From positions 1-42,020 of IMG/VR virus record IMGVR_UViG_3300036852_000372: a stretch of 42,020 nucleotides of DNA; one strand, given 5' to 3'. Under the pieces are notes generated by a model that ran no database searches, had not been told where the DNA came from, and worked only from the letters and a program-made list of their open reading frames with translations. Shown here piece by piece: positions 3,368 to 35,143 of this stretch. The position numbers were made by a program, and so were the translations under genes. How positions within the stretch are numbered: position 1 is the stretch's first letter; every line of letters begins with the position of its first letter. The stretch comes from a virus.

Positions 3368-3382
3368 CCCTGTAGTATACGC

Positions 3383-4827: not shown

Positions 4828-4994
4828 TAGATTTTCTCCTCAAAGGCCTTAAAATCCTTTAATTTCTCCTTGAATAATGTAAGATCATATTGACTCACAG
4901 TGGATAACTTCTTCCACCCCCACCATGTCTTGATATAGACTTTATAGTAGAGATAATCCCTGTTGAAAACAGGTATGAATTTAAAGTCCTGCAT
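4827..4994 (-). CDS. Unlisted 55-aa ORF (MQDFKFIPVFNRDYLYYKVYIKTWWGWKK...FEEKI)
   Basis: Found by hand translation because it falls below the track cutoff. ATG 4994 has AAGAGG upstream. Its TAA shares one base with the ThyA-homologue ATG (TAATG), and it fills an otherwise empty 150-nt gap. Confidence 0.45.
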   Translation of the reverse strand: MQDFKFIPVFNRDYLYYKVYIKTWWGWKKLSTVSQYDLTLFKEKLKDFKAFEEKI

Positions 4995-5844: not shown

Positions 5845-6583
5845 AGCGTACCCCGTCCTCATTTGCTAGCCACTTATCTTTTGTATTCCGCGCGACGACC
5901 TTGACGTAATCAGGGAAGCGAGCAGATAGATACTCAACCGCCTTCGTTTGCATGTCGCTTGTGCGATAGATTGAGCAACCTCCCGGGGCTTGGCAAGGCC
6001 CATGGTCTTGGAAATGGGTTGTGATAATCTTGTTTCCCTGCCCACGTGCCAAGAGTGTACAATTGAGTACCACGTCAGCCAGAATTGGAAATTGATCCAC
6101 TTTAACTTTTCCAATTAACCTCCTGTTAATTCCTTGGATGCAGATAATTCTACCGTTGTCAACGTACGGGGGCTTCGTGTTCTGCCCCATCTGTCTGGGG
6201 TGGACTCCGACCAGTGCTGTGTCTTCGAGGAGCTCTTCCATGTAATCGAAGAGTACCCCAGTTTCTTCAACATCTTCGATAGTTCTAAGACTTGGTCTTC
6301 CATCGACGAGTACTCGTCTGGAAAAGACAAGATCATCGTCAAGAATGCAGGCTTTTTCATTTGTATCATAGCCCCCAAACGCAGATGGGAATCCGTCTAG
6401 GATGTATTGGAATTTTTCACTGTAGTTAGTAATTCGTTCTGGCACAGCATACGTTTGATGTACATGCTGTATAGCTTCTTCAGCTGGACAGACCAGCCAC
6501 GTTTTATCTTTCCACCGTTGGGGCAGACGCCCCAACGTATACTGTCTTCCGACGCGTCCACGAGTCATAATATACAGGTTCAT
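5747..6583 (-). CDS. GT-A-like nucleotide-sugar transferase fold candidate (function uncertain)
   Basis: ATG 6583 with GGAGG upstream; the track start at 6625 lies inside a terminator. The first strand is NLYIMTRGR and the acidic ILDDDLVF sits about 90 aa in, like a DxD motif. There is no Walker A motif. Confidence 0.4.
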   Translation of the reverse strand: MNLYIMTRGRVGRQYTLGRLPQRWKDKTWLVCPAEEAIQHVHQTYAVPERITNYSEKFQYILDGFPSAFGGYDTNEKACILDDDLVFSRRVLVDGRPSLRTIEDVEETGVLFDYMEELLEDTALVGVHPRQMGQNTKPPYVDNGRIICIQGINRRLIGKVKVDQFPILADVVLNCTLLARGQGNKIITTHFQDHGPCQAPGGCSIYRTSDMQTKAVEYLSARFPDYVKVVARNTKDKWLANEDGVRYDYTCQWKRLYAAGSAYVLGGRTGVNPDKEGS

Positions 6584-6592
6584 AACCCTCCT

Positions 6593-6618
6593 AAAAATCC
6601 GGGGCCGTGAGGCCCCGG
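6593..6618 (-). terminator. Rho-independent terminator (leftward)
   Basis: On the minus strand, CCGGGGCC-TCAC-GGCCCCGG is followed by ATTTTT. It lies between the stop of 6622..6813 and the RBS of 6583. Confidence 0.7.
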
Positions 6619-6621
6619 TCG

Positions 6622-6813
6622 TCAATATCGCCGGCCAGACCGGCGGACCTCGGCTCTCGCTAACATTTTCAGGAATTCATTCCTTGCATCATCTTTAGCA
6701 GTGCGTTCTGGGGGTGCCGTTCCAAGAGTATCTTTGATATTGAGTATATCGTAACCTTTGTAGTCACTACTCATTATCAGATCATCTTTGGATGGTGCAT
6801 CCCAGAAGCTCAC
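6622..6813 (-). CDS. Hypothetical protein (63 aa)
   Basis: ATGA start/stop coupling with the upstream gene. No recognisable motif. Confidence 0.6.
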   Translation of the reverse strand: MSFWDAPSKDDLIMSSDYKGYDILNIKDTLGTAPPERTAKDDARNEFLKMLARAEVRRSGRRY

Positions 6814-7994: not shown

Positions 7995-9431
7995 CTACGC
8001 CTCGGGGTTATTGTTAAAGTCATTAATCGCCATCAGGAGGTCTTGCTGAAGTCGATCTTTAGACGACAAGACTTTGACAACTTTTTCGTCGTAAGTATCC
8101 TTTGCAACGAGATGATAGACGACCACGTGATCACTCTTTTGCCCCTGCCGGTAGACTCGCGCAATCGCTTGGTCATAATGCTCTAAGTTCCAGGTTATGC
8201 CGTACCAGATTATATGATGACAACTTCCCTGAAGATTGAGACCGTGGCCCATAGAAGCAGGATGCCCCATGAGCACAGGAATCCTCCCGCTATTAAAAGC
8301 GTCAATCGTACTAGCCAAACGGGCTCCTGTCTGCCCTTTAAGATCGATAATAGACCTAAAGCGATCGGCGATACGCTGACGATCGTGATCAAACTCATAA
8401 AGAACCAAGACGGGATGTCCATTTAGTTCCTCCAGAAGCCCTTCCAGGGCTTCAAGCTTTTCATCGTGAAGAGCTACCCATGCTGTGTCTTCTTTGTAGA
8501 CGGCCCCGTTTGCCACCTGACGGCACTTCCCGCTCGCTACGGCTGAGTTTGCCGCTACGATCTCTCCGTCTTTTATCTTGCAGATAAACTCTTCCTGGAG
8601 GGACTTGTACATCGTCATTACGGAAGGAGGCAAAGACACTGAAATCGTCCGGTAGTCTAGCGCGGGCATTCGCAGATATTCTTCTGCTGACAACTGGAGT
8701 AAAAGTGGGGAGATTCGTTCTACGATTCTTGGGAATGCGTCCTTCTGTGGAGTCCAATCGTACAGATTTCGGCCTTGCACGAAGAACTCTCTGCGATAGT
8801 GTGTAATGAAACGACCTAAGGATCTCCCTAAGTCCAGGATGAACATCTGCCCAAAGAGATCTAATAATCCGTTTGGTGCTGGAGTACCCGTGAGAATCCA
8901 ACGTCTCTTGAAGCAAGGAAGAAATGGCTTCAACAGCTTGAATCTCTGCGTCTGTGAATCTTTGAATTTTGAGCTTTCGTCGATTATGAGGACGTCGTAC
9001 GGATTCCCGTGAGTCGTCATATGTGTGATTAACCACTTCAACCCCTCCGGATTTATAAGATGGATCTGTGCATCACTCGCAAGCGTTGCTTCCTTCTGAC
9101 CCCCGTGGAGAATCCCGTAGGTCATCTCCTTGAACTCTTCCCACTTCTGGATTTCCCCCGGCCAAACGGAGTACATTGGTCTTAAAGGTGCTACGATCAG
9201 ACATTTCCGAATTAAAGATTTTTGGAACAGTATTTTCAGTGCTGCCAGACAAATTGACGTCTTCCCCAGACCCGGGTCCAAGAACAGACCCGCTGCGGCT
9301 TGGGAAAGTAGCAACCGAATCGCTCGGGTCTGGTAGTCGTGCGGGTTCCACAGCGGCTTTGAGGATGTTGATTCCTTCAACGGTGTTATCTGTCCAGGCT
9401 GCTGGGATGCCTCGTTTTCTAAGCTGGTCAA
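7995..9431 (-). CDS. SNF2/Rad54-family helicase
   Basis: PHDYQTRAI (Q motif), LDPGLGKT (motif I), LIIDESSKFK (DExx, motif II), ILTGTP (III), and a C-terminal HPASMGHGLNLQ...QAIARVYRQGQ (V/VI). TTG start at 9431 with AGGAG 7 nt upstream. Confidence 0.9.
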   Translation of the reverse strand: MTSLENEASQQPGQITPLKESTSSKPLWNPHDYQTRAIRLLLSQAAAGLFLDPGLGKTSICLAALKILFQKSLIRKCLIVAPLRPMYSVWPGEIQKWEEFKEMTYGILHGGQKEATLASDAQIHLINPEGLKWLITHMTTHGNPYDVLIIDESSKFKDSQTQRFKLLKPFLPCFKRRWILTGTPAPNGLLDLFGQMFILDLGRSLGRFITHYRREFFVQGRNLYDWTPQKDAFPRIVERISPLLLQLSAEEYLRMPALDYRTISVSLPPSVMTMYKSLQEEFICKIKDGEIVAANSAVASGKCRQVANGAVYKEDTAWVALHDEKLEALEGLLEELNGHPVLVLYEFDHDRQRIADRFRSIIDLKGQTGARLASTIDAFNSGRIPVLMGHPASMGHGLNLQGSCHHIIWYGITWNLEHYDQAIARVYRQGQKSDHVVVYHLVAKDTYDEKVVKVLSSKDRLQQDLLMAINDFNNNPEA

Positions 9432-9624
9432 GACGAAACTCCTGTAGAGGATCGGGCTTATATCCCGGTCGTTTGAACTCTATGAAAATGGTGTGGCCGA
9501 TAGGACTTATGAATAGTCGGTCGGGCCAACCTGCTTCGGAGAACTTAACCTTCGGGGCTAGGAAGCCGTGCTTCAACGCCCAATTCACCACCACTTGCTC
9601 TATATCTTTCTCTAAACCGCTCAT
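9073..9624 (-). CDS. VRR-NUC domain nuclease whose frame stays open about 95 codons past the domain
   Basis: MSGLEKDIEQVVVNWALKHGF...GWPDRLFISPIGHTIFIEFKRPG...LQEFRLDQLRKRG is the VRR-NUC pattern (E...PD...E.K...Q). RBS GGAGA. The stop comes only at 9073, 359 nt inside SNF2. Confidence 0.75.
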   Translation of the reverse strand: MSGLEKDIEQVVVNWALKHGFLAPKVKFSEAGWPDRLFISPIGHTIFIEFKRPGYKPDPLQEFRLDQLRKRGIPAAWTDNTVEGINILKAAVEPARLPDPSDSVATFPSRSGSVLGPGSGEDVNLSGSTENTVPKIFNSEMSDRSTFKTNVLRLAGGNPEVGRVQGDDLRDSPRGSEGSNACE

Positions 9625-9745
9625 CTTCTGTCTCCAGGTATTTGATGGCACGATCTAAGATCGCATTTACTTCCCACGACTTCGGTACTCTAGCTCCTGT
9701 GTAGATGCTAGCCCTTAGAGCTTTAAGCTCGTCTAAAACTTGCAT
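9545..9745 (-). CDS. Hypothetical protein (66 aa)
   Basis: ATG 9745 (MQVLDELKALRA...). It overlaps the VRR-NUC start by 80 nt. Confidence 0.45.
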   Translation of the reverse strand: MQVLDELKALRASIYTGARVPKSWEVNAILDRAIKYLETEDERFRERYRASGGELGVEARLPSPEG

Positions 9746-10377
9746 GGTCCACCATTCATTCGTGAAAAAGAACAATAACGGCACATGAAATTAGGATTCG
9801 GAAGCCACTCCGTTTCCTGTTCCAGCTTTAGAACTCTGGAATTCCACGAAGCCCGCAATTCGTGCAACTGCTGACGATCATACGTCTTTTCTCGATTCTT
9901 TCCAAGGTCAAGGTATACGTGGATCGCCCGCACCCTCTGCACAGTAGGGGATTCGGAAAATGCTGCGAGACTGTATAGGGACTTTTGATCGTCGTGCTCA
10001 GGGTAGATCTTGCCAGTCTTCCAATCAATAATGGTGATTTCTTCCCCTGTTCCACAGACTTTGAGATCGAAAATTCCTCTATACCAGCATAGATCTCCAT
10101 CCCATTCTGTAACTTCCCAATCACGCGTGAGGGCGACTTTGTGTTCAGGATAGATTTCCCGGCCTTTGAGCTGCGTGAGGTACTGCGTATAGAAGTTGAT
10201 TTCATTGGGTAACTCTGTGATAGTTCCTTTAAGGAATGATTCAATCGTTGCATGCAGCTCAGTTCCTCTGGCAGCAGCGTCCGATTTAAAGTTGACAGGT
10301 AGACGTTCAATATGTCGGTACTTATATTGAGCAGGGCACTTTTCGTAGGATGATAACGCACTTAATGACCACCTCAT
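9733..10377 (-). CDS. Cas4/RecB-like PD-(D/E)XK exonuclease with a 4-Cys cluster
   Basis: YEKCPAQYKY gives the N-terminal Cys. The nuclease core is GIFDLKV...IIDWKTGK. The C-terminal Cys triad is CRYCSF...GGPC. ATGA overlap with the polymerase stop. Confidence 0.8.
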   Translation of the reverse strand: MRWSLSALSSYEKCPAQYKYRHIERLPVNFKSDAAARGTELHATIESFLKGTITELPNEINFYTQYLTQLKGREIYPEHKVALTRDWEVTEWDGDLCWYRGIFDLKVCGTGEEITIIDWKTGKIYPEHDDQKSLYSLAAFSESPTVQRVRAIHVYLDLGKNREKTYDRQQLHELRASWNSRVLKLEQETEWLPNPNFMCRYCSFSRMNGGPCKF

Positions 10378-22718: not shown

Positions 22719-24078
22719 TGAGAATGAAATTCGGGTAGAATATGAGCCACGAAAACAATTTCTGCCTTTTCATCTGCGAAAAACACGATTCGCATGTCTT
22801 GTTGCACACCGCCGAGCAGGAAAGACAGTTGCGTGTGTTAACGAACTTGTGGCACGAGCTATATACTCTAAGAAAAAGCGCCCCAGATACGCATACATTG
22901 GTCCTCTTCTCAAACAGGCGAAGAAAATCGCCTGGGAATACCTGAAGGAGTACACTCGTGGACTCGAATCCAAGAAACCCTCAGAATCTGAGCTCACAGT
23001 GCGATTGCGCCACAACGAAAGCGAAATCTGCATCTACGGAGCAGATAACCCTGACGCTTTCCGTGGTCAGTATTTTGACGGGGTTGTCCTCGACGAGTAC
23101 GGCGACATGTCTCCGTCCGTTTGGTCAAAAGTTCTCCTGCCCACTCTAGCAGATCGCAAAGGATGGGCCGTTTTCATCGGCACATTTAAGGGAAGGAACC
23201 ATTTCTACAAGATCTGGCGCAACGCTCAGGGTTTTGATCTTCCGGAGAACATGAACTCTTCTGAGTTCACGAAAGACTGGTATCATTTCACGTTAAAGGC
23301 CTCCGAATCTGGTATTCTGCCTGAATCGGAACTCGCTCTGCAGAAAATGCAGATGGACGAGGAAGAATATCAACAGGAATACGAGTGTAACCCGAATGCA
23401 GTCGTCAAAGGCACCTACTTCTCCAAGATCATCGCTAAACTTGAGCAAAATGGGCAAATCTACGCAGATGTGGACTGGGAACCAGATCAGCCAGTTGAAG
23501 TTGCGGCAGATCTCGGGTACACAGACTCATCTGCGTACTGGTTCTTTCAGAAGAGGCCGGGTGGTCTAGCGATCATTGATTACTTAGAGGCTCACAGTAA
23601 GCCCCTTGATTATTACTTCGATGAACTCAGGTCTCGTGGATATACGTACAATACGATCTGGCTTCCGCATGACGCTCGGGCTAAGTCGTTGCAAACTGGA
23701 CGATCCACTGTTGAGCAATTCCTGTACAATCAGTTCCCGGTGCAAATTGCTCCGCACATGGGAATTCAGGACGGTATTGAAGCTTGCCGTCTCATGCTTC
23801 CACTCTGCCACTTTAATGTGAGAACTGAATATGGCGTGGAAGCTCTCAGAGCATACAAAAGATCTTGGGATGAGGACAGAAAGGTATTTTCTGACACTCC
23901 TTACCATGACTGGTCTTCGCATGGCGCGGATGCTTTCAGATATCTCGCTCTGGTCGCTAAAGAGATTAGAGTTGATAGCGAAAAGCCGACAAGAGTGATC
24001 CCAGTCCCCAAAATTCAACTTGAGCCGTTATTTCTCGACAGGGAGAGACGTCTTAGGACTACTCGGAGCCGTATATGA
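22711..24078 (+). CDS. terL: Terminase large subunit
   Basis: Walker A is AHRRAGKT and Walker B is VVLDEYGDM. The RNaseH-like nuclease residues are AADLGYTDSSAYW and HGADAFRYLA. Confidence 0.9.
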   Translation: MSDENEIRVEYEPRKQFLPFHLRKTRFACLVAHRRAGKTVACVNELVARAIYSKKKRPRYAYIGPLLKQAKKIAWEYLKEYTRGLESKKPSESELTVRLRHNESEICIYGADNPDAFRGQYFDGVVLDEYGDMSPSVWSKVLLPTLADRKGWAVFIGTFKGRNHFYKIWRNAQGFDLPENMNSSEFTKDWYHFTLKASESGILPESELALQKMQMDEEEYQQEYECNPNAVVKGTYFSKIIAKLEQNGQIYADVDWEPDQPVEVAADLGYTDSSAYWFFQKRPGGLAIIDYLEAHSKPLDYYFDELRSRGYTYNTIWLPHDARAKSLQTGRSTVEQFLYNQFPVQIAPHMGIQDGIEACRLMLPLCHFNVRTEYGVEALRAYKRSWDEDRKVFSDTPYHDWSSHGADAFRYLALVAKEIRVDSEKPTRVIPVPKIQLEPLFLDRERRLRTTRSRI

Positions 24079-26174
24079 AAGAGAAAGATGAGAAAAAGGA
24101 AACCAGTGCTGACCTCTATAAGCATTGGGTCAAGGAATTCAGTGCGGCCAAGAAAAGTGTGTCTAAGTGGCACAAAGAGGGCGAAAAGACTGTCCAGAAA
24201 TTTCTGGACGACCGCCGTGGGGATCTCAACGATTTTTCTGAAAATACAACGAGGTTAAACCTCTACCATGCAAACATCACTACTCTTATGTCCATGTTGT
24301 ATGGACGAATACCGAAAGTGGAAGTTGATCGACGATTCGCCGACGCAGACGATGATCCAGCTCGCGTCGCCGGGGAAATTTTGTCACGGATGCTTAACAC
24401 AGATATCGAAGAAGCCGGAGAGGACATCGCCTCCGTCTTCCGCAACTGCCTGCAAGATAGACTCATCCCAGGTCTCGGAAACGCTCGGGTAAAGTACGAA
24501 TTTGAGGAAAAAGACGGACAAATTCACAACGAGTGGGTGGACATCGTCTACACCTATTGGAAAGATACCCTCTGGTCTCCGGCGCGCACGTACTCAGAAC
24601 TTCGTTGGAAAGCGTTCCGCTCATATCTCACCAAGGAGCAGGTGAAGGATCGATTCCCGAAATGCGACATCAACAAGGTTTCCTTCACGTCGAAAGGTCC
24701 AATGGCAAAGGGCCGGTACGACAAAGAGGATGAGACGAACCCACAGGCCGAAATTTGGGAAATCTGGAACAAAACCACTCGGCAGGTCATGTACTGGACC
24801 GAGGGCTACGAAAACATGCTCGAAGTCGTAGAAGATCCGCTGGAGCTCGAAGGGTTCTGGCCTGATCCGCCGCCTCTGATCGCGAATCTCACCACGACGC
24901 GCTACATGCCTCGCAGTGACTACGCCATTGCTCAGGACCTCTACACTGAGATTGACGAGCTAGAGACTCGCATCACCATGCTCACGCGAGCCTGCAAGGT
25001 CATCGGCTTGTATGACAAGAAGCAGGAAGGCCTCCAGCGTATGTTCACGGAAGGAGTGGAGAACGATCTCATCCCAGTGGACAACTGGGCGATGTTCGCC
25101 GAGAAGAACGGTCTGGTAGGTGTGGTTCAGTGGTTGCCTCTGGCAGATATCGTCAACGCAGTGGACACACTCACCCAGAAACAGAGTGAGAAGATCCAGA
25201 AGCTGTACCAGATCACGGGCATGAATGACGTGATGCGCGGCGCAGCGACGCAGGCATCGGCCCGTATTTCTGCGACTCAGCGCCAGCTGGAGGCGAACTA
25301 CGGATCGATTCGTATCGAAGCTCTACAGAACGAGTTTGCTCGCTGGGTGTCGGATATTCAAGCCCTGAAGGCTGAGATTATCGCCAAGCACTTCCAGCCG
25401 TACTGCATCATCCAGCAGTCCAATATCACGATGACTCCGGATGCTCAGTTCGCTGAGGCTGCGATCAAACTTATCAAGGCCCCCGGCGCGAGCCGCTGGC
25501 GGATTTCGGTCCGGCCGGAGACTCTCGCCATCGCTGACTACGCTCAGCTCAAGCAGGAGCGTACTGAGTATATCATGGGCATGTCTCAGTTCTTACAGTC
25601 CTCGGCACCCATTGCGGAACAGATGCCCGAGTCTGTGCCGTTCCTCATGAAGATGCTCAAGTGGGGCATGGCTGGATTCCGTGGCAGTAGCGAGATCGAA
25701 GGGGTCATGGACCAAGAAATCGCTAAGATGGAGAAGATGCCTCCGAAGCCGAAGACGGATCCGGCTCAGGCCAAGGCGCAGGCTGAATCTCAGAAACTGC
25801 AGATGGAAATGCAGATGCGGCAACAGGAAATGCAGGCAGAAATGCAGCGCGACCAACAGAAGCATCAGTTGGAAATGCAGCAGATGCACGCTAAGTTCCA
25901 ACTTGAAATGAGGCAGCAGACCCAAGAAATGCGGATGGAGATGCAGAAACTGCTAATGACTCTTGACTTCAAGAGACAAGAACTCGGGCTGAAGATTCAA
26001 GAGAAACAGGTAGAAGCAGAAGCGAATGAACAGGAACAGGCGGCTCAGTTCGCCTACAACACAGCGGAGAGGCAACATGAGGCGCAGGTATCGGCAGAAT
26101 CCGGAGACCTTGAACTTCGAAGAGATAAAGAACGAGCCAAGCTCAAGGACACAAAGCCATCTGGTAATGCCTGA
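24075..26174 (+). CDS. Portal protein with a Gln/Met/Glu-rich C-terminal extension
   Basis: 699 aa, directly after terL with an ATGA overlap. The C-terminal about 145 aa are coiled-coil-like, with EMQ repeats. Confidence 0.8.
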   Translation: MKEKDEKKETSADLYKHWVKEFSAAKKSVSKWHKEGEKTVQKFLDDRRGDLNDFSENTTRLNLYHANITTLMSMLYGRIPKVEVDRRFADADDDPARVAGEILSRMLNTDIEEAGEDIASVFRNCLQDRLIPGLGNARVKYEFEEKDGQIHNEWVDIVYTYWKDTLWSPARTYSELRWKAFRSYLTKEQVKDRFPKCDINKVSFTSKGPMAKGRYDKEDETNPQAEIWEIWNKTTRQVMYWTEGYENMLEVVEDPLELEGFWPDPPPLIANLTTTRYMPRSDYAIAQDLYTEIDELETRITMLTRACKVIGLYDKKQEGLQRMFTEGVENDLIPVDNWAMFAEKNGLVGVVQWLPLADIVNAVDTLTQKQSEKIQKLYQITGMNDVMRGAATQASARISATQRQLEANYGSIRIEALQNEFARWVSDIQALKAEIIAKHFQPYCIIQQSNITMTPDAQFAEAAIKLIKAPGASRWRISVRPETLAIADYAQLKQERTEYIMGMSQFLQSSAPIAEQMPESVPFLMKMLKWGMAGFRGSSEIEGVMDQEIAKMEKMPPKPKTDPAQAKAQAESQKLQMEMQMRQQEMQAEMQRDQQKHQLEMQQMHAKFQLEMRQQTQEMRMEMQKLLMTLDFKRQELGLKIQEKQVEAEANEQEQAAQFAYNTAERQHEAQVSAESGDLELRRDKERAKLKDTKPSGNA

Positions 26175-26397
26175 CATTCCGGAGTTTGTATCCCCTGTTG
26201 ATGGCTCAGTCATCACAGGGCGTGCGGCGCTGCGTGAACACAACAAACGTCACAATGTGACGAATGTCGCTGACTTCACGAATCAGTGGGCGAATCAGGC
26301 AAAGGAACGGGAAAGAATGTATTCCGGCGACAAGGGCTTTGATGCCAAGCGCCGGAAAGATGCGATTATTCGGGCAGTCAACAAACACTGGAGATGA
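26167..26397 (+). CDS. Small head-module protein (76 aa)
   Basis: ATG 26167 overlaps the portal stop. Sequence MPDIPEFVSPVDGSVITGRAALREHNKRHNV.... Confidence 0.6.
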   Translation: MPDIPEFVSPVDGSVITGRAALREHNKRHNVTNVADFTNQWANQAKERERMYSGDKGFDAKRRKDAIIRAVNKHWR

Positions 26398-27527
26398 AAA
26401 TGGATCGCCGACAAGCATTAGAAGAAGCCTTCGACAAACTGGAGTCGGATGACGATGATGTCGTCACAACGGAGGTTCCTGCAAATGAGACTCACGAAGA
26501 AGGAACTCAAGGCGTTGAGGGAGAAGGGAAATCGGAACCGGGTGCAGAAGCGCCTCAAGGCGTGGAGGCAGGAAAGAGCGGAAAGAAAGAGGAAAAAGTT
26601 CCATCCGCTGAACCCGCTGCAGATGGAAAGAAAGGCGCTCAAAAGACTGAGAAAACGGATGATGCTCTTAACCGAGCTGCGCAGGCTGCTGCGGGAAATC
26701 AGCCCGAGGTCGGAAAAGCCCCTGTGTCTTGGAAACCCGCCGCGAAAGCCGCTTGGGACAAGCTTCCGGTGGACGTGAGACAGGATGTTCTGCGCCGGGA
26801 ACAAGAAATTAATAAGTACATCTCCCAGAATGACCATCACCGTAAATTCACTGAAGGGTTTGGGAATGTCGTGCGACCCTTTATGCCACTGATACAGGCT
26901 CAGGGATCCACACCGCTTCAGGCCGTACGGAACATGATGGTCACAGCGGCGGGGCTTACGACCGGTTCGGAAGAGCAGAAAGCTCGTATTGTCGCTGAAA
27001 TCATCGGCAACTACAAGGTGAGCGTCGAAGTTCTGGATAAGATTCTGTCTGATGGTGGGGTTCCTGCCAGTCGTGGGAACGCGTCAATCGATCCTACTAT
27101 CATGCAGGCACTTCAGCCAGTCTACGGCTTTATGAATGAAGTTCAGCAGGCCCGTGAGGCCAAAAGACAGAGACAGGTCGCTGAGGCAGAGTCGCTCATT
27201 GAACAGAACGCGGACAAGCCGTTCTTTGATGATCTGTCAGACGATATGGCGGATATCATGGAAATTGCTGCGAAGCGTGGACAGGAACTTACTCTCGATC
27301 AGGCATATGAAAAAGCACTTGCCCTCAACCCGGAAATTTCGAAGATCGTCGCCCAGCAGAAGGCTGCTGAAGAAGCCCGCGCAAATGGAGGCACCCGTCT
27401 TGCGAAAGCCAGACGAGCTTCTTCAACTCTTACTGGAGCCCCTTCAGGATCCCCGGACGGAAAGGGCAAAGCAACGACTCGGCGCGAGGCATTAGAGGCT
27501 GCGTGGGATGAACACGCGACGCATTAA
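26394..27527 (+). CDS. Scaffolding protein
   Basis: It lies between the portal and capsid genes. It has an acidic/Lys-rich low-complexity N-half and a helical C-half. The start is ATG 26394 or 26400. Confidence 0.7.
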   Translation: MKMDRRQALEEAFDKLESDDDDVVTTEVPANETHEEGTQGVEGEGKSEPGAEAPQGVEAGKSGKKEEKVPSAEPAADGKKGAQKTEKTDDALNRAAQAAAGNQPEVGKAPVSWKPAAKAAWDKLPVDVRQDVLRREQEINKYISQNDHHRKFTEGFGNVVRPFMPLIQAQGSTPLQAVRNMMVTAAGLTTGSEEQKARIVAEIIGNYKVSVEVLDKILSDGGVPASRGNASIDPTIMQALQPVYGFMNEVQQAREAKRQRQVAEAESLIEQNADKPFFDDLSDDMADIMEIAAKRGQELTLDQAYEKALALNPEISKIVAQQKAAEEARANGGTRLAKARRASSTLTGAPSGSPDGKGKATTRREALEAAWDEHATH

Positions 27528-27673: not shown

Positions 27674-28636
27674 GTGGCATTTCCAAATGTCTCAGACTTG
27701 GTCGCAACCACAATTGAATCGCGTAGCGGTGAAATTGCGGACAACGTGACCAAGAACAACGCGCTGCTCAGCAAGCTGAAGCAGCGTGGAAACATTCGGA
27801 CGTTCTCGGGCGGAACCCTGATTTTTGAGGAGCTCAGCTTCGCAGAAAACGGTAACGCCGGGTACTATTCCGGATACGATCTCCTGCCCGTCGCGGCGCA
27901 GGACGTACTGAGCGCTGCTCAGTATGCAATCAAACAGGCGGCGGTTCCCGTCGTCATGTCCGGCCTGGAGATGCTCCAGAACGCCGGAAAAGAGAAGATC
28001 ATCGATCTGATGGACGGCCGCATGGCCGTCGCCGAAGCTTCTCTCGCCAACCTGCTTGCCTCGGGTATCTACTCGGACGGCACGGGCTCTGGTGGCAAGG
28101 AAATCACCGGCCTCAACGCTGCGGTCCCGGTCAATCCGGCGACTGGAACGTATGGTGGTATCGATCGTGCGACGTGGACCTTCTGGGCCTCGAAGATCAA
28201 CAATACCTCGGGCATCGTGGCTTCCACGATCCAAGGTGCATTGAACACTCTTTGGGCGCAGCTCATCCGCGGCAGCGATCGTCCGGACTTCCTGGTCTCG
28301 GACAATACGGTCTGGGCTCTTTACATGGCGTCTCTCCAGGCGCAGCAGCGTTTCGTGGATGTGAGCACTGGAAACCTCGGTTTCCCGAGCATCAAGTACA
28401 TGGACGCGGACTACATCCTGGACGGCGGCATCGGTGGCTTCTGCCCAGCAGGAACTCTGTTCATGCTGAACACGAAGTACATCTTCTGGCGCCCGCACCG
28501 CGATCGCAACATGGTCCCACTCAGCCCGAACAAGCGTTACGCGGTCAATCAGGACGCGGAAGTGCAGATTCTCGGCTGGGCTGGGAACCTCACCACGTCG
28601 GGCGCCCAGTTCCAGGGCCGCTTTGACAACAACTAA
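27674..28636 (+). CDS. Major capsid protein (HK97-fold expected)
   Basis: GTG start with AGGAGG 9 nt upstream. It is 320 aa and follows the scaffold gene. The GTYGGIDRATWTFW type motif is common in podovirus capsid proteins. Confidence 0.8.
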   Translation: MAFPNVSDLVATTIESRSGEIADNVTKNNALLSKLKQRGNIRTFSGGTLIFEELSFAENGNAGYYSGYDLLPVAAQDVLSAAQYAIKQAAVPVVMSGLEMLQNAGKEKIIDLMDGRMAVAEASLANLLASGIYSDGTGSGGKEITGLNAAVPVNPATGTYGGIDRATWTFWASKINNTSGIVASTIQGALNTLWAQLIRGSDRPDFLVSDNTVWALYMASLQAQQRFVDVSTGNLGFPSIKYMDADYILDGGIGGFCPAGTLFMLNTKYIFWRPHRDRNMVPLSPNKRYAVNQDAEVQILGWAGNLTTSGAQFQGRFDNN

Positions 28637-28648
28637 GGAGTAGCGAAA

Positions 28649-29218
28649 ATGGTATCTCTCGCAATGGCTACTCCTGTCATCGGCGCCAACGTGAACAACG
28701 TGGACACCGGCACGACCACCAATGGTGAAAATGCCAAGTTCCAGTTGGGCACAAAGATCCAGGGGCCGGATGGCAACGAGTACATGTACGTTCAGGCAGC
28801 GGAAGCGATCACGACTGCGATCACGAGTCCCAATGCCGTAGCGATTGACGAGGACTTCCAGGCGTCTCTCATGACGACTGCGCTTGCCCTCAACAACTAC
28901 GAGCTGGGTTTCGCTCCGATTGGGTCGGGTATTGCGCTCATTCCGGACAACGCGTTCTTCTGGGCGCGTGTGAATGGTGCAACGTTCAATGCGCGAGTCG
29001 CAGCTTCGGCTGCGGCAGACACGTATCTGCGAACGACCATCACTGCCGGTCGTCTCGGTACGGCCTCCACGGCTTCCGCTGTGGTGTTCTACGGTGTCGT
29101 GATCGTCGCGGCGGCTTCTGCCTCCACGTCGGCCAACAACACCATCCGAGAAGTGCTGATGACCAAGGGCCGCGCGATCCGTCAGGGTCAGCCGGTCGCT
29201 GCTGGCTTCGTCAACTAA
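28649..29218 (+). CDS. Putative capsid decoration/cement protein
   Basis: AAGGAG RBS. It is 189 aa, lies immediately after the capsid gene, and is followed by a strong terminator. It is Ala/Ser/Thr-rich. The function is inferred from position. Confidence 0.5.
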   Translation: MVSLAMATPVIGANVNNVDTGTTTNGENAKFQLGTKIQGPDGNEYMYVQAAEAITTAITSPNAVAIDEDFQASLMTTALALNNYELGFAPIGSGIALIPDNAFFWARVNGATFNARVAASAAADTYLRTTITAGRLGTASTASAVVFYGVVIVAAASASTSANNTIREVLMTKGRAIRQGQPVAAGFVN

Positions 29219-29243: not shown

Positions 29244-29277
29244 GGAGGGGCTCCAAACCGGAGCCCCTCCTTTGGGG
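29244..29277 (+). terminator. Rho-independent terminator after the capsid/decoration genes
   Basis: Perfect 11-bp stem GGAGGGGCTCC/GGAGCCCCTCC followed by TTTGGGG. Confidence 0.7.
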
Positions 29278-29292
29278 CTCCTCCAACTGGAG

Positions 29293-30573
29293 ATGAAGGT
29301 AAATGTCAGCGACGGACAGTTGCTGAAAAACCTCAACTACGTTAAGGAGCTTGGCGTCCCAGCGATTCAGCTGATGGAGCCAAACAAGAAAACTCTCGCA
29401 ATCTGCGGAAGTGGCCCGTCATTACGAAATACGTGCAACATCATTCCTAATGATGCAGATATCATGGCTCTTAACGGGGCTTATCGTTTTCTGCGTAAGA
29501 AGGGAAAGACTCCGACGTATTTCGCAATGCTGGACTCTCGTGAAGTCAACGTAAATCTTCTGGAAGAGCTGAATACCGAAACGACTTATCTGCTGGCCTC
29601 ACAGTGCCACCCGAAAGTCTTTGATCGTCTTTGCTCAAATGAGTTTGTGGTGGGAACTTTTCACCTCGGTACCCCCACTACGAGGTCCGTATTCCCAGAC
29701 CAGGACCTCTATGTTGGCGGTGGGGGCACGATAGGCCTTACTGCTATCGCTTTGGCGGTGGCTCTGGGCTATCGGTCTGTGATCCTGTACGGCATGGACT
29801 CATCCTTCGATGGTGACAAGAAACATGTGATTCACCAGCCGCAGAATGATGGTGAAGAGATTATCCCCGTGTGGGTAGATGATCGTAAATACATGACCAG
29901 CATGGCGATGGCTGATCAAGTCATGCAGTTCTTCCCTTTCCACAAGGCTTTGAGGGAGGCGTACCCAGATGTCACGATTGATATCATTGGTGATGGCCTC
30001 TTTTATGATTTTGTTGTCACCAACAATAATCCAAGCTCCCGAGATCGTGAACTCGCCAAGTACGTGGATGCTTACAAAGAAGACAACTACGGGATGTCTC
30101 TTGAGAGAGCAAAAGGTCTGGCGGCGCTGTTATCTCGTATTCCATTCAACGGGTCGTATCTGGACGTCTCATGCGGCCGTGCAGAGAGTCTGAATCTCGC
30201 CCGTCAACTCGGTTTCGGCACCGTGCAGGGAACGGAGACAGTGGAAGCACTGTGTGGACCCAACGTGGTTCATGCGGTGCTCCCTACTATTCCTTTCGCG
30301 GATAAGTCGTTTGACACCGTGTCTTTAATCGAGGTCATCGAGCACTTAGTTCCTGATGACATTGTTCCGACGCTCAATGAACTGACACGTCTGGCGCGTC
30401 ACCACATTCTCATTTCCGCGGCCATCTACGAACATTGGATCGCTGGTGTCAACTTGCATCCGTCGGCCATGCCGGTGGAAAAGTGGGAAGAAATCTTCAA
30501 GTCTGTCTGGGGCGATAACGTCTATCGTGTCGGTAGCCTTGGGAGCTCGCCATGCTGGCGCGTGGACTTATAA
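29293..30573 (+). CDS. Fusion protein: MptE/Maf-like (PF01973, ex-DUF115) domain plus class I SAM-dependent methyltransferase
   Basis: The N-half carries LAICGSGPSL, ADIMALNGAY, PTYFAMLDSRE and GGGGTIGLTAIALAVALGYRSVILYGMDSSF. The C-half carries YLDVSCGRAESL (motif I) and FDTVSLIEVIEHL. The start is taken after the terminator. Confidence 0.7.
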   Translation: MKVNVSDGQLLKNLNYVKELGVPAIQLMEPNKKTLAICGSGPSLRNTCNIIPNDADIMALNGAYRFLRKKGKTPTYFAMLDSREVNVNLLEELNTETTYLLASQCHPKVFDRLCSNEFVVGTFHLGTPTTRSVFPDQDLYVGGGGTIGLTAIALAVALGYRSVILYGMDSSFDGDKKHVIHQPQNDGEEIIPVWVDDRKYMTSMAMADQVMQFFPFHKALREAYPDVTIDIIGDGLFYDFVVTNNNPSSRDRELAKYVDAYKEDNYGMSLERAKGLAALLSRIPFNGSYLDVSCGRAESLNLARQLGFGTVQGTETVEALCGPNVVHAVLPTIPFADKSFDTVSLIEVIEHLVPDDIVPTLNELTRLARHHILISAAIYEHWIAGVNLHPSAMPVEKWEEIFKSVWGDNVYRVGSLGSSPCWRVDL

Positions 30574-31226
30574 AGGGAACGATCTGCTGCGTTCTTAAGA
30601 GTGGTGGTGACTTCACCCCTGCGCACGTCGCATGGCTGAAGCAGATGTGCCATGAAAAGATGCCTGATTGGGATTTCTGCTGCTGGTCGGATATGGACGT
30701 TCCGGGCCGCATCCCATTGAAGATGAATCTCCCCAAATGGTGGTCCAAGATGGAGATCTACCGGACCGAATTCGGTGGCCCGGCTCTCGTAATCGATCTG
30801 GACACCGTTTTCCTGAAAGAATTCACAATTAGGCCTGAACATGAAGATGAAATGCTGGTTATTCGCTGCCCTTGGAAGAACGGGTTCCGATCACCGGAAC
30901 GTCTTGCTGGTGGATTCATGTATCTGCCTTCCTGGGCCCGCGCGCAGATCTGGCAAGCGTGGCGTCTGGCGGGCGAAGATACCATTGGACTATACGACGA
31001 CAATGACCAGATATTTCTGCACAAGTACTTCGCCGATAAGGCACTCCGTATTCAGGACCACTACATTGATGAGGTAGTGTCCTACAAAGTTCACGTTCTC
31101 GGGATAGGTTTACAATCCGAGAATAAGGTGGTATATTTCCACGGTGAACCTCGTCCCTGGAATGTAGATCTACCCTGGATTCCGAAATGCTCGCACCCGG
31201 ATCAGTCTTCAGCTCAGGCCGCGTAG
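30552..31226 (+). CDS. GT-A-like glycosyltransferase
   Basis: RBS GGGAG. ICCVLKSGGDFTPAHVAWL, the DxD motif in ALVIDLDTVF, and ...VVYFHGEPRPW. Confidence 0.55.
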   Translation: MLARGLIKGTICCVLKSGGDFTPAHVAWLKQMCHEKMPDWDFCCWSDMDVPGRIPLKMNLPKWWSKMEIYRTEFGGPALVIDLDTVFLKEFTIRPEHEDEMLVIRCPWKNGFRSPERLAGGFMYLPSWARAQIWQAWRLAGEDTIGLYDDNDQIFLHKYFADKALRIQDHYIDEVVSYKVHVLGIGLQSENKVVYFHGEPRPWNVDLPWIPKCSHPDQSSAQAA

Positions 31227-31522
31227 ATATCACGGCTGGAGCCGCTCAGACACCCGACTACTTCAATCAAGGAGTTGGGTTTATGAATGATGGGTCTCTG
31301 GCAGTGGATACAGATGCCCCTTCTGGGGATCTTTATCGTGCTGGCATCCGCCAGTCAGCTGTTGGAGCATTCTACGGGACCACGACGGCTGCCGGAACGG
31401 ATAATTGGGTTGGTGGCATTAGAGTCTCCAACCTTGGACAGATTGTTTACGAAGCCGCCGCAGCGGTGAGCTTCCAGAACGGCGATCCTGCAACCTCAAA
31501 TGGTCGCTTTGCGACCGCCTAG
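31187..31522 (+). CDS. Hypothetical virion-module protein (111 aa, or 79 aa from ATG 31283)
   Basis: The sequence upstream of Met 31283 (YFNQGVGF) looks coding. GGAG lies 8 nt before ATG 31283. The start is unresolved. Confidence 0.5.
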   Translation: MLAPGSVFSSGRVDITAGAAQTPDYFNQGVGFMNDGSLAVDTDAPSGDLYRAGIRQSAVGAFYGTTTAAGTDNWVGGIRVSNLGQIVYEAAAAVSFQNGDPATSNGRFATA

Positions 31523-32358: not shown

Positions 32359-33105
32359 ATGGCCCGATACGACACAGCAGGAGACATCATCAACGCAGCC
32401 GCTGTTGAGTGTGGACTCACTGCTGTGGCGGATCCCTTTGCTTCAACAGATCCGGCTTTTATTCAGCTGGTACAACTCCTGACCAACACCGGTCGGGAGT
32501 TGCTCGGCTTATTCCAGTGGAACAGGTTTGTGGTGGAACATTCCATCACCACCGCAGTTCCTCCGGATACAGGTAACTACGATCTTCCGGATGACTTTGC
32601 ATACTTCATTGACCAGACCGGCTGGACCCCGACCAATGCTGGCCTCGGCCTGCCATTGGGAGGCCCACTCTCGGAACAAGATTGGGCGTATCTGGTCAAC
32701 ACGAATTTGGCTTCCAGCACCATTTTCGTATCCTTCAAGATGTCACAGGGTCAGTTCCAAGTTCTGCCTCAGCCGCCCCCGGATGGAATAGACATCAACT
32801 TTAAGTACATCAGTCGCTGGTGGGTTGCTCTTGCAGCTGCCGCGACTGTCGCAGTTCAGGATCGAATCACGGCCAGCGACAACGTAGTGCTCTATGAGCC
32901 TATTTTGATCACTAAATTCCTGAAACTCAGGTTCTTGGAGGCTAAGGGCTTTGACACCTCAGGTGCCTCCCAGCAATTTCATTCTGTATTCATGCAGTGG
33001 ACAGGAAAAGATGTGTCTGCCCCTGTCCTCAACGCCGCCCGTATGAGGTTGTTCCCGTATCTGGGCTGGCGGAACATCCCTGAGACTAACTATGGGCTCC
33101 CGTGA
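32359..33105 (+). CDS. Putative adaptor / tail tubular protein A-like
   Basis: 248 aa. It lies between the head genes and the large nozzle-like protein. Assigned by synteny only. Confidence 0.4.
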   Translation: MARYDTAGDIINAAAVECGLTAVADPFASTDPAFIQLVQLLTNTGRELLGLFQWNRFVVEHSITTAVPPDTGNYDLPDDFAYFIDQTGWTPTNAGLGLPLGGPLSEQDWAYLVNTNLASSTIFVSFKMSQGQFQVLPQPPPDGIDINFKYISRWWVALAAAATVAVQDRITASDNVVLYEPILITKFLKLRFLEAKGFDTSGASQQFHSVFMQWTGKDVSAPVLNAARMRLFPYLGWRNIPETNYGLP

Positions 33106-34721
33106 TGCTTGGGTACAGACCTACGAAGCTGAATCATCCCTCGCCGCAACGGACCTCTGTAAGCAAAATTCCTGCTCCGATCGCGGGGATCAATGCCCAG
33201 ACGGGCCTGAGCGAAATGTCGCCCAACGAGGCGATATTTCTCAAGAATATCTACCCGTCACGTTACGGTTGTCGTGTCAGGAGCGGTTATCGTGAATTTG
33301 CCACTAATGTCGGTACAGGTGGCACACGAACTATCCTTCCATATGTCGGCTCCTCTGATGCCCAGAATCGCCTGTTTGCATGCGCAGAGGATGGCATATA
33401 CAATATCACTGCTGGAGGAGCTGCTCCGACTCTCGCGCTGGCCTTTGGAGCAGCAGACGTTGAGTCTGGATATGGCCAGTGGACGCTATACGTTACGACA
33501 GCCGGACACTTCCTGGTTTATTGCGACGAGTCCAATGGTTATAAACTCTACACAGAGTCCACGGGTCTCTGGACTACCGTCGCTCTGGGTGGCGGTGCGG
33601 GTCAGATCACTCCCCAAGACCCTGCGACCTTCGCAGGCTGCGTAATCTTCAAGAGTCGTCTCTGGTTCATTGAGAAAGACTCTGCATCCGCATGGTATCT
33701 GCCAGTTGGGCAGATCACTGGCACAGTCACAGAGTTTAACTTCGGTAATAAGTTCAAACATGGTGGCACCCTTGTCGCTCTCTACAACTGGACTATTGAC
33801 GGTGGTGAAGGCATCGACGATTATCTGGTCGCTGTGTCTTCTACTGGTGACGTTGTCATATATAAGGGAAATGATCCGAACACTGCGACAGACTTCATCC
33901 AACATGGACAGTGGTACATCGGACAAACTCCAGTGGGTAGGAGGATTGCTGGCTCTTTTGGCGGCGAACTATATATCCTATCAGCTTACGGCCTCATTCC
34001 TCTCACTAAACTCATCGCCGGGGCGCTGATCCAGCAGGAGGACATCTATGTGTCCCGTAAGATCAACCCGCTCATCAATGATCAGATGGGAGTCACCCGT
34101 ACCGATCTCGGCTGGGAAGTCAGACTCATACCGGCCGACAATCTCCTCTTAATTTCCACCCCGAAGCGGACGGGACTGTCCTACCTTCAATTCATACAGT
34201 CGCTCAACACTGAGGGGTGGTCCACCTTTATAGACATCCCGTACCTTACCGGAGATGTTTATCTTGATGACTTCTACATTGGGGATGAAGACAACCGGGT
34301 CCTCATCTACGACGGAAATGCCGACAATGTCTTGCTTGACGGTACAGGCGGAATTGACATCGAGTTTTCATTACTTCAAACCTTCCAAGAAGAAGGACAA
34401 GTTGGAAACTACAAGAGATCTCAGTTTCTTCGCCCGGTATTCATTGCCTCAGCTGCCCCCGCGTATATTGCGGAGGTTCGGTATGATTACAATCTGTCTG
34501 AACTTTTTGGAGCCCCTTCAAGCAGTTCCGTATCTGGCGCTCTCTGGGACGTTGCAATATGGGATGCGGCTTTGTGGTCCGTTGAACTCGCTACAGCAGA
34601 CCAGTTACGAGGAGGGAATGGTATGGGGCGAACAATCGCTATCGGCCTCAATGGCAACGTACAGGCTGAGACGATTCTCGTACGTACAGACCTCTATAAG
34701 GACGAGGGATGGAGCTTATAA
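33105..34721 (+). CDS. Putative nozzle / tail tubular protein B-like (beta-rich)
   Basis: 538 aa with TGATG coupling. It is a repetitive beta-strand-rich sequence. Assigned by synteny with podovirus tail genes. Confidence 0.45.
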   Translation: MLGYRPTKLNHPSPQRTSVSKIPAPIAGINAQTGLSEMSPNEAIFLKNIYPSRYGCRVRSGYREFATNVGTGGTRTILPYVGSSDAQNRLFACAEDGIYNITAGGAAPTLALAFGAADVESGYGQWTLYVTTAGHFLVYCDESNGYKLYTESTGLWTTVALGGGAGQITPQDPATFAGCVIFKSRLWFIEKDSASAWYLPVGQITGTVTEFNFGNKFKHGGTLVALYNWTIDGGEGIDDYLVAVSSTGDVVIYKGNDPNTATDFIQHGQWYIGQTPVGRRIAGSFGGELYILSAYGLIPLTKLIAGALIQQEDIYVSRKINPLINDQMGVTRTDLGWEVRLIPADNLLLISTPKRTGLSYLQFIQSLNTEGWSTFIDIPYLTGDVYLDDFYIGDEDNRVLIYDGNADNVLLDGTGGIDIEFSLLQTFQEEGQVGNYKRSQFLRPVFIASAAPAYIAEVRYDYNLSELFGAPSSSSVSGALWDVAIWDAALWSVELATADQLRGGNGMGRTIAIGLNGNVQAETILVRTDLYKDEGWSL

Positions 34722-35143
34722 GGAGATCTACTCGTGATGAGATGGAGAGGATGTGTCGTGAGCTCCCATATAACCCGACATCTGGGTTGCGAGGAATTAC
34801 TTACGGAGATGGATTGGCTGTCGTCGCCTACGATAACTGGACAGAAAATGCCGTCTTCATCCACTGTTGGTCACGAGCAACTAGACCCTGGTTTGACAGA
34901 CGATTTCTTACAGAAATCTTTAGATACCCCTTCGAAATCTGCAATAAGGGGCTTGTAATCGCCAGTACTCAGGGGGATAATACCCCTGTTTTAGAACTCA
35001 GTCGCAAACTCGGCTTCAGGATAACCTACCGAGTCCCGGACGGCTGGAGTCTTGGAACCGACTTGGTCATCCAAGAGATGCGACGTGATGAATGTCGTTG
35101 GCTCAGGAGGACTCAGGTATGGGATGGTTCAGTGACGCATTAA
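34709..35143 (+). CDS. GNAT-like acetyltransferase fold candidate
   Basis: ...LVIASTQGDNTPVLELSRKLGFRITYRVPDGW resembles the GNAT beta4-alpha3 / C-terminal (..A..L..KLGF...G) region. It is 144 aa. Confidence 0.4.
   Translation: MELIRRSTRDEMERMCRELPYNPTSGLRGITYGDGLAVVAYDNWTENAVFIHCWSRATRPWFDRRFLTEIFRYPFEICNKGLVIASTQGDNTPVLELSRKLGFRITYRVPDGWSLGTDLVIQEMRRDECRWLRRTQVWDGSVTH

Follow-up and report, generated by a model that had tools for sequence, protein, structure and literature searches.

Introduction

Maf proteins are O-glycosyltransferases that attach nonulosonic acids to flagellin and are known from Magnetospirillum magneticum (structure 5MU5), Clostridium botulinum and Geobacillus kaustophilus. 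Their targets are Ser and Thr residues of a structural protein that is abundant and assembles by itself, and the modification takes place in the cytoplasm ahead of this assembly; they can use the cytidine monophosphate (CMP) derivatives of 3-deoxy-D-manno-octulosonate (CMP-Kdo) or N-acetylneuraminic acid (CMP-Neu5Ac), and sugar-modifying enzymes are often found alongside them. In E. coli, Maf enzymes transfer Kdo from endogenous CMP-Kdo (bioRxiv 10.1101/2020.06.03.131540; PMC11339370). Here we describe a locus of the IMG/VR virus record IMGVR_UViG_3300036852_000372 (positions 1 to 42,020, the whole stretch analysed, hereafter called the window), a podophage genome of about 42 kb. In this locus a protein that fuses a Maf-like PF01973 domain to a methyltransferase is encoded between the capsid and neck genes, together with a GT8-like glycosyltransferase and a small Ser/Thr/Ala-rich protein of 189 residues, p189. 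Comparison of sequences makes it on balance probable that these three genes are a capsid-decoration glycosylation cassette, placed in a hypervariable slot between capsid and neck genes.

Glycans on phage particles change environmental persistence, sticking to surfaces and mucus, and recognition by antibodies. To our knowledge, phage-encoded virion glycosylation has so far been documented essentially for mycobacteriophages. For these it is referred to as established (Freeman et al., 2023, Cell Host Microbe 31:1216, as cited in PMC12582341 and PMC11256854). The window resembles the mycobacteriophage system, whose glycosyltransferases modify proteins of the capsid or tail, in having phage glycosyltransferases near structural genes, a predicted use of host donors, and accessory genes; the hosts, however, are Actinobacteria there and probably Proteobacteria here. 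The mycobacteriophage system is not known to have a Maf/PF01973 enzyme, a methyltransferase fusion or a small dedicated acceptor that travels together with its enzymes.

A second term of comparison is given by phage P1, with pmgO and pmgQ (hdmD in P7), and by Citrobacter phage phiNP, with phiNP_031 and phiNP_030. As in the window, these phages pair a Cst/Maf-like protein with a PmgQ-type GT8-like enzyme. The Cst/Maf-like proteins match the profile of the window N-domain (hhalign probability 95-96%) and the glycosyltransferases are about 30-33% identical to that of the window, but the former are only 177-220 aa long and lack the fused methyltransferase, and no homologue of p189 is encoded close to them. 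In P1 (NC_005856, 2138..4696), pmgO and pmgQ belong to the late operon LPpmgL, with ppp between them, while the two phiNP genes (5472..6657) overlap each other. Both pmgO and pmgQ were non-essential in a CRISPR interference study of P1 (PMC10695390).

Results

The PF01973 half of the fusion protein

The original prediction, made from the DNA alone, had read the open reading frame (ORF) downstream of p189 as a PF01973 domain fused to a class I S-adenosylmethionine (SAM)-dependent methyltransferase, followed by an overlapping GT-A glycosyltransferase gene. The features that it quoted are all in place and all the motifs occur in the translations. The fusion ORF (29293..30573) encodes 426 aa and its ATG is located 7 nt after a GGAG. 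Its N-terminal half matches PF01973 with an E-value of 6.2e-22 and a score of 78.6 bits, which is above the Pfam gathering threshold of 34.6; the match involves residues 9-173 and positions 2-169 of the 171 of the model, that is most of it, so that the family assignment holds.

An AlphaFold2 model of the fusion protein, built on 46 homologues, had a pLDDT of 92.7. Its top fold match in the PDB, as found by Foldseek, was M. magneticum Maf 5MU5 (E 3.5e-8), while the remaining top matches were all class I methyltransferases and concerned the C-terminal half. The profile of the N-domain, when compared to the PDB, also gave 5MU5 as the best match (E 1.1e-10, in two stretches). The second-best was 8SD5, the archaeal 6-hydroxymethyl-7,8-dihydropterin pyrophosphokinase MptE, with E 1.5e-5 but only at positions 14-91, which correspond to the N-terminal nucleotide-binding part; a second 8SD5 stretch was not significant (i-E 1e+03). 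The GT42 enzyme Cst-II was matched by the C-terminal part of the profile at about 2e-3 and, in a phmmer search, at E 6e-4 over residues 5-185, a weak match whose alignment stops before the catalytic His188. In the HMMER alignment, Maf residues E324 and D415, both critical for activity (bioRxiv 10.1101/2020.06.03.131540), stand opposite D81 (..MLD) and D169 (YGMD) of the window protein. These two residues are invariant among the 46 homologues and among a set of 15, and a near-invariant H178 follows the GMDSS motif. The catalytic fold and both critical acidic residues are therefore common to the window domain and to the flagellin Maf enzymes.

The choice between a Maf-like and an MptE-like active site, which the original prediction had left to profile and structure searches, falls on Maf, since 5MU5 is the best match by both and the MptE match is confined to the N-terminal part. 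Judging from profiles and the predicted structure, the PF01973 half appears to be Maf-like and not MptE-like, namely a stripped-down glycosyltransferase core of the Maf/GT42 type. It was not filed as a Maf orthologue because it consists of the core only (about 250 aa), fused to a methyltransferase, and lacks the N- and C-terminal flanking domains, thought to bind flagellin, of the full-length Maf architecture (about 600-650 aa). The nearest NCBIfam model, FlagModPseD (flagellin modification protein PseD), was matched with E 9.5e-6 and 24.5 bits against a cut-off of 670, and only centrally (positions 227-377 of 640), the remainder of the fusion protein being the methyltransferase. The context also differs with respect to Maf, as the gene lies in a phage capsid module and not in a flagellar glycosylation island, and the predicted acceptor is a phage virion protein.

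The resemblance to MptE had also suggested another function, in which the PF01973 domain would be an MptE-like pyrophosphokinase that activates 5-hydroxymethyl-deoxyuridine (5-hmdU) in DNA, thus providing a (pyro)phosphorylating activity missing from the 5-hmdU pathway, and the glycosyltransferase and methyltransferase would decorate the base. PF01973 is in fact named after MptE, 8SD5 ranks second among the profile matches, the phage possesses what looks like a complete thymidine hypermodification cluster (2999..6625, minus strand; Table 1), and phage glycosyltransferases acting on DNA bases are known (PMC13326640; bioRxiv 10.1101/2023.12.21.572611). The premise, however, turned out to be wrong: the canonical 5-hmdU DNA kinase, with its PF18723 domain, is encoded in the same cluster, and hence nothing is missing for an MptE-like enzyme to supply. 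Moreover, the window domain shares with MptE the Pfam family and the N-terminal Rossmann-like segment with its GxGPS loop, but this match ends at about residue 91, whereas it is Maf and Cst-II that match the C-terminal half, where the GxD-S motif lies; Maf is matched in both halves, catalytic acidic residues included. No pterin genes were seen in the window, which offers no pterin or folate context. The enzyme genes belong to the late operon, on the other strand and about 23 kb away from the modification cluster, and many lineages show them linked to a protein encoded beside the capsid gene. In addition, the domain is found repeatedly in combination with GT2, GT8 and methyltransferases of four different families, which is what glycan assembly would lead one to expect. 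We consider a role in DNA modification highly improbable. A scan of IMG/VR for relatives of the 5-hmdU kinase, intended to show whether cassette and DNA pathway occur independently of each other, found none, the patterns used having been derived from a single protein and being too strict.

The methyltransferase half

The C-terminal half of the fusion protein matches Methyltransf_11 over residues 290-369, with a score of 30.8 bits (Pfam threshold 21.2) and an E-value of 4.7e-7. Of the SAM motif residues, D291 and G295 do not vary among 28 full-length homologues and E315 is retained in at least 90% of them; the EVIEHL motif likewise has an invariant residue, H351. The score above the Pfam threshold, the conserved SAM-binding motif I and the many methyltransferase fold matches agree with the class I assignment that had been made. 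The nearest named relatives are sugar O-methyltransferases, i.e. MftM (E 1.5e-7) and, among the structural matches, AtmM (6uv6/6uvq) and RebM; as a pointer to a sugar substrate, this kinship is suggestive only.

Linkage of p189 to the enzyme genes

The gene of p189 adjoins the major capsid protein gene on its 3' side and has at least 150 homologues. In an alignment of 117 sequences the Ser/Thr clusters of p189 are conserved (residues 22-24, 76-77, 129-132, 140-143 and 157-161), and in three of them (22-24, 140-143 and 157-161) each residue is conserved in 86-100% of the sequences.

The linkage between p189 and the Maf-like gene was analysed in an unbiased set of 129 loci fetched via the capsid protein alone, 102 of which extended for at least 2.5 kb downstream. 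A Maf gene was present in both of the p189-bearing loci and in 3 of the 100 p189-less ones (Fisher p = 0.002). All loci fetched via p189 alone (L145/146, L147 and L148) have a PF01973 gene directly downstream, and the same position is occupied by a Maf-like gene in 12/12 distinct p189 loci, window included. With respect to the window, locus L091 encodes a capsid protein of only 37% identity, whereas the identities of p189 (69%), Maf (56%), methyltransferase (62%) and GT8 (57%) are much higher, which indicates that the p189, fusion and GT8 genes moved as a unit. Locus L147 (5001..6430) is the closest backbone apart from L003, with a capsid protein 87% identical to that of the window. Its p189 is divergent (53%), and the next gene encodes a Maf-only protein of 272 aa; methyltransferase and GT8 are both absent. 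The content of the cassette therefore varies independently of the backbone; p189 and Maf constitute the minimal unit, and the methyltransferase and the GT8-like enzyme are dispensable add-ons. This minimal form points to a Maf that acts directly on protein. The strict co-occurrence, and the movement of both genes together between phages, support p189 as the linked partner of the Maf-like gene.

As to the nature of p189, its sole PHROG match is a weak one to phrog_26298 (E 0.0011), and the protein itself does not match phrog_29386 ("virion structural protein"). The profile of its family, however, matches the L043 member of phrog_29386 with an hhalign probability of 92.6% and E 4.5e-7. This link runs via L043 only, the hhalign comparisons of p189 with the post-capsid proteins of L087 and L088 being not significant; no similarity was seen between p189 and the post-capsid protein of Stenotrophomonas phage BUCT555. 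Position and remote homology to phrog_29386 suggest that p189 is a virion or decoration protein.

The enzymes might instead modify another virion protein, with p189 acting as a specificity or adaptor factor; candidates are the major capsid protein, the tail proteins and the protein of 79 aa encoded at 31283..31522. According to bioRxiv 10.1101/2023.12.03.569772, some Maf systems need extra components for the site-specific modification of flagellin. The capsid gene is adjacent to the cassette, and the original prediction, which envisaged a virion-protein glycosylation/methylation module, had named the product of 31187..31522 as a candidate acceptor besides p189. The start of this ORF is more likely the ATG at 31283, as called in the 97%-identical relative L003. 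If read from 31187, the ORF would extend 40 nt into the glycosyltransferase gene. Its homologues occur both with and without the cassette. As the 79-aa protein is found in relatives devoid of the enzymes (L010, L012 and L035), it is not specifically linked to them, and of the two proposed acceptors only p189 has gained comparative support. The capsid protein, in turn, is 70-87% identical whether the cassette is present or not, and it is p189 that combines highly conserved Ser/Thr clusters with a kinship to virion structural proteins. A different acceptor is in our opinion quite unlikely, and p189 is the acceptor that we favour.

The GT8-like glycosyltransferase

The last gene of the cassette encodes a protein of 224 aa and overlaps the fusion ORF by 22 nt. 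The protein matches phrog_1962 ("glycosyltransferase") with E 2.9e-35 and is about 30% identical to P1 PmgQ and P7 HdmD. A profile of 36 homologues matched GT8 enzymes in the PDB (AgtA 6mw5, E 6.7e-6; GlyE 5gvv, 1e-4; glycogenin, 2e-4), and the top Foldseek matches of its AlphaFold2 model (pLDDT 92.2) were retaining GT-A enzymes of families GT6 and GT8, with a TM-score of about 0.6. D82 and D84, which form the DxD motif in VIDLDTVF, are invariant in the 36 homologues together with H197, G198 and P200, and the C-terminal segment H197-G-x-P-R-P-W is conserved. The assignment to GT-A, with the DxD motif where it had been predicted, is thus borne out. No Pfam GT8 model was reached by the protein, only Nucleotid_trans and weakly (E 0.048), and for this reason we regard it as a divergent GT8 member or as a sister family.

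The closest solved relatives include enzymes that act on proteins or protein-linked glycans, namely glycogenin, Dictyostelium AgtA (on Skp1) and pneumococcal GlyE (on PsrP). The window protein resembles these in its GT-A fold, in its DxD motif and, near the C-terminus, in a motif of the H..G..(K/R)PW type that the profile match brings into alignment, but it is only 224 aa long and belongs to a phage-specific family, phrog_1962. The donor is likely a uridine diphosphate (UDP)-hexose, on the basis of this relationship.

The same family raises the question of whether the enzymes remodel the host envelope, i.e. modify the lipopolysaccharide (LPS) core, the lipooligosaccharide (LOS) or the capsule of the host, and not a phage protein; receptor masking, superinfection exclusion or reduced sticking of the progeny to cell debris could be the purpose. 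GT8 includes α-hexosyltransferases of the LPS core, and LgtC is among the fold matches of the 224-aa protein; the GT42 Cst enzymes, weak sequence matches of the N-domain, sialylate LOS. In temperate phages the gene pair is found away from the capsid genes (pmgO...pmgQ in P1; phiNP_031/030 between lysis and terminase genes), the PHROGs category of phrog_1962 is "moron, auxiliary metabolic gene and host takeover", and in P1 both pmgO and pmgQ are dispensable for plaque formation (PMC10695390). A function in the envelope, however, leaves unexplained the strict linkage to p189, the co-transfer of p189 and enzymes onto the divergent capsid backbone of L091, and the minimal p189 and Maf unit of L147. 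Moreover, the genes lie inside the late structural operon of a phage that is probably lytic, because it encodes a DNA polymerase of its own as well as a pathway for DNA hypermodification, and little of the LPS synthesised so shortly (minutes) before lysis would get to the cell surface. Envelope remodelling is the main alternative to the glycosylation of p189, but an unlikely one.

Relatives of the fusion protein and the capsid-neck slot

About 77 full-length homologues of the fusion protein were collected (41-97% identity), almost all from metagenomic contigs, many of which measure 40-43 kb. A tblastn search against 50,697 GenBank phage records gave no match, which leaves the cassette without a cultured relative, and neither did a scan of GTDB species genomes; as the latter was empty, no cellular or prophage source was identified. 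The 46-sequence alignment was too divergent for a locus search, and a narrower one yielded 5 IMG/VR loci. In the loci examined the gene order is capsid protein, p189 homologue, fusion protein and GT8. Proteobacteria are among the sources of capsid protein relatives.

In relatives, the distance from the capsid gene to p204, which is the next conserved gene, varies between 0.3 and 5.4 kb, and the genes in between are unrelated cargo. Such variation in size and content identifies it as an accessory slot, and p189 as a gene that is not part of the structural core. Among phages with capsid proteins 70-87% identical the slot is hypervariable, and in some it is empty at 0.3 kb. Its cargo includes a 776-aa repeat protein of the "SASGG..TGGAAT" type (L082, 9557..11887; also L077), a 1423-aa protein (L084, 8716..12987) and, in BUCT555 (8043..9962), the closest cultured backbone, a holin and an endolysin.

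More distant podophages, with capsid proteins 41-56% identical, encode other small Ser/Thr-rich proteins after the capsid gene, followed by Maf-like enzymes. Three contigs of distantly related podophage or prophage-like type carry triple fusions of GT8, Maf and methyltransferase: 677 aa in L087 (6001..8034) and 702 aa in L142 (8632..10740), both with a methyltransferase of the FkbM type, and 664 aa in L118 (8621..10615). Two Maf-like genes occur in L088, where one of them is fused to a methyltransferase, and also in L107, which has a methyltransferase besides; in L089 an unfused methyltransferase lies beside Maf. The small post-capsid proteins of L087, L088, L107 and L142 belong to phrog_29386. 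An exhaustive HMMER search found the Maf-like domain in 1,201 cluster representatives (50% identity) at E ≤ 1e-10, and further architectures were Maf–methyltransferase–Maf, methyltransferase–Maf and GT2–x–Maf. A domain that is joined with four methyltransferase and two glycosyltransferase families is expected to belong to a glycan-building enzyme.

The original prediction also held that such an arrangement had not been described for a phage of this type. The literature searched (PmgQ, PF01973 and phage, Maf and phage, and related topics) contained no functional study, and no report was found of a Maf-type core combined with a methyltransferase, a GT8 enzyme and its own capsid-adjacent protein in Gram-negative phages. 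Related multi-domain proteins, however, are already present in public viral databases under the name "MptE-like"; in fact, several such proteins of "uncultured Caudovirales", named automatically, are among the top fold matches in BFVD.

The hairpin between p189 and the enzyme genes

A GC-rich hairpin is located 3' of the p189 stop codon, with the stems GGAGGGGCTCC (29244-29254) and GGAGCCCCTCC (29260-29270) forming 11 perfect pairs. In its 85-nt context the folding energy is -39.8 kcal/mol (z = -3.4), and none of 200 shuffled sequences was as stable. On the plus strand the 3' tail reads only UUUGGGG, a weak U-tract, and for this reason a consensus scan made no plus-strand terminator call at this site. 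Of the "strong hairpin terminator" that had been proposed, the strong hairpin is confirmed, but as a terminator it is partial at best. It is probably a partial terminator or an mRNA stabiliser, which would lower the expression of the enzymes relative to capsid protein and p189. Of 11 loci examined, 8 (window, L004, L005, L007, L008, L091, L145 and L147) have a GC-rich hairpin at the equivalent site, downstream of the p189 stop codon and ahead of the Maf gene, with unrelated sequences; L148 has a weaker one, and none was found between these two points in L095.

Layout of the window

The early region on the minus strand encodes DNA polymerase, helicases and the thymidine hypermodification cluster, while the late structural operon, on the plus strand, starts with terminase and continues with the portal (Table 1). 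The enzyme genes do lie between capsid and neck genes, as had been claimed, with the major capsid protein gene on the 5' side and the adaptor and tail genes on the 3' side. Several small ORFs separate the GT8-like gene from the adaptor homologue.

Table 1. Position of the features discussed in the text, along the 42,020 nt of the window.
Feature	Coordinates	Strand	Match or remark
DUF3310/nucleotide-kinase-like ORF	2999..3367	-	
HAD/PNKP phosphatase	3383..3889	-	
Thymidylate-synthase-like protein, probable dUMP hydroxymethylase	3835..4827	-	
5-hmdU DNA kinase, helical domain PF18723 (HMUDK_hel)	4981..5862	-	E 3.1e-35
Glucosyl-HMC glucosyltransferase-like ORF	5747..6625	-	phrog_842
Portal	24075..26174	+	
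Scaffold	26394..27527	+	
Major capsid protein	27674..28636	+	phrog_9953, E 1.7e-107
p189, small post-capsid protein, Ser/Thr/Ala-rich	28649..29218	+	189 aa; predicted acceptor
GC-rich hairpin between p189 and enzyme genes	29244..29270	+	11-bp perfect stem
Maf-like (PF01973) glycosyltransferase domain	29293..30042	+	fusion protein aa 1-250
Class I SAM-dependent methyltransferase domain	30043..30573	+	fusion protein aa ~251-426
GT8-like retaining GT-A glycosyltransferase	30552..31226	+	PmgQ/HdmD family, phrog_1962
SU10-type adaptor homologue	32359..33105	+	followed by nozzle-like protein and tail genes

Two further observations concern the late operon. A GNAT-like acyl-CoA N-acyltransferase (34709..35143, plus strand; phrog_4470, E 7.7e-25) is encoded between the nozzle-like and tail-fibre-like genes, and a GNAT is found at the equivalent position in BUCT555; it may be a second virion-protein-modifying enzyme. 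In addition, a 123-aa ORF (26026..26397, plus strand) shares the last part of the portal gene, read in a different frame, and in relatives a gene of 76-105 aa is called between portal and scaffold (L003, 2951..3181).

Discussion

Computation has established what the domains are, that their catalytic residues are conserved, and that the genes are linked, fused in several lineages and mobile as a cassette. On this basis we propose a mechanism in which the acceptor, the donors, the order of the steps, the location of p189 on the head surface and the benefit to the phage are all predicted from the gene content. Late in infection, the capsid protein and p189 would be made in bulk, while the hairpin after p189 would let through only part of the transcription, or of the mRNA stability, so that the enzymes would be present in smaller, catalytic amounts. 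The Maf-like domain would then glycosylate p189 at its conserved Ser/Thr clusters, to which it would O-link a keto-deoxy sugar of acidic type. This sugar may be Kdo, with CMP-Kdo of the host as donor, or, in a host able to produce it, a nonulosonic acid. The fused methyltransferase would O-methylate the sugar, the GT8-like enzyme would add an α-linked hexose from a UDP-sugar, and the glycosylated p189 would decorate the surface of the head. No sugar-nucleotide genes were found in the window, which means that the donor must be made by the host; a phage-encoded CMP-sugar pathway was rejected on the same ground. CMP-Kdo is the simplest candidate, considering that Maf uses it in E. coli and that the capsid relatives occur in Proteobacteria.

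Several points weigh against this interpretation. Canonical Maf proteins need flanking acceptor-binding domains, which the fusion protein does not have. Many relatives with proteins of the phrog_29386 type (e.g. L013, L043 and L082) have no enzyme, and the status of p189 as a virion protein derives from position and remote homology. The homologous pairs of P1 and phiNP are not beside capsid genes, so the enzymes can do without such a neighbourhood. Enzymes of LPS and LOS synthesis are likewise members of the GT8 and Cst families. Finally, virion-protein glycosylation in this phage group is a prediction from sequence.

Taking these points together with the linkage and mobility of the cassette, the most likely meaning of the locus is that the phage coats its own head with sugars, something not yet described among phages that infect Gram-negative bacteria. 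It is conceivable, although we hold this as tentative and just short of probable, that environmental podophages of Gram-negative bacteria possess a widespread and so far unrecognised system of capsid glycosylation, i.e. a mobile cassette that encodes a protein decorating the head together with a dedicated ulosonic-acid O-glycosyltransferase of the Maf type, and to which methyltransferase and GT8 modules are optionally added. As parts of this broader and equally tentative proposal, the virion surface would bear a short methylated glycan, and pmgO and pmgQ of P1 would be relatives of the same enzymes.

If this is true, Gram-negative phages would glycosylate their virions too, by means of a different enzyme family, host CMP-Kdo and UDP-sugars, and a self-contained cassette of acceptor and enzymes. 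Virion glycosylation would extend beyond actinobacteriophages, and Maf enzymes would gain a second class of natural acceptors, with a compact, non-flagellin natural substrate for Maf-type O-glycosyltransferases that would be useful for glyco-engineering. The automatic annotation "6-hydroxymethylpterin diphosphokinase MptE-like" would have to be corrected as misleading for such viral proteins, which amount to about 1,200 related clusters, and a testable function would be suggested for pmgO and pmgQ of P1.

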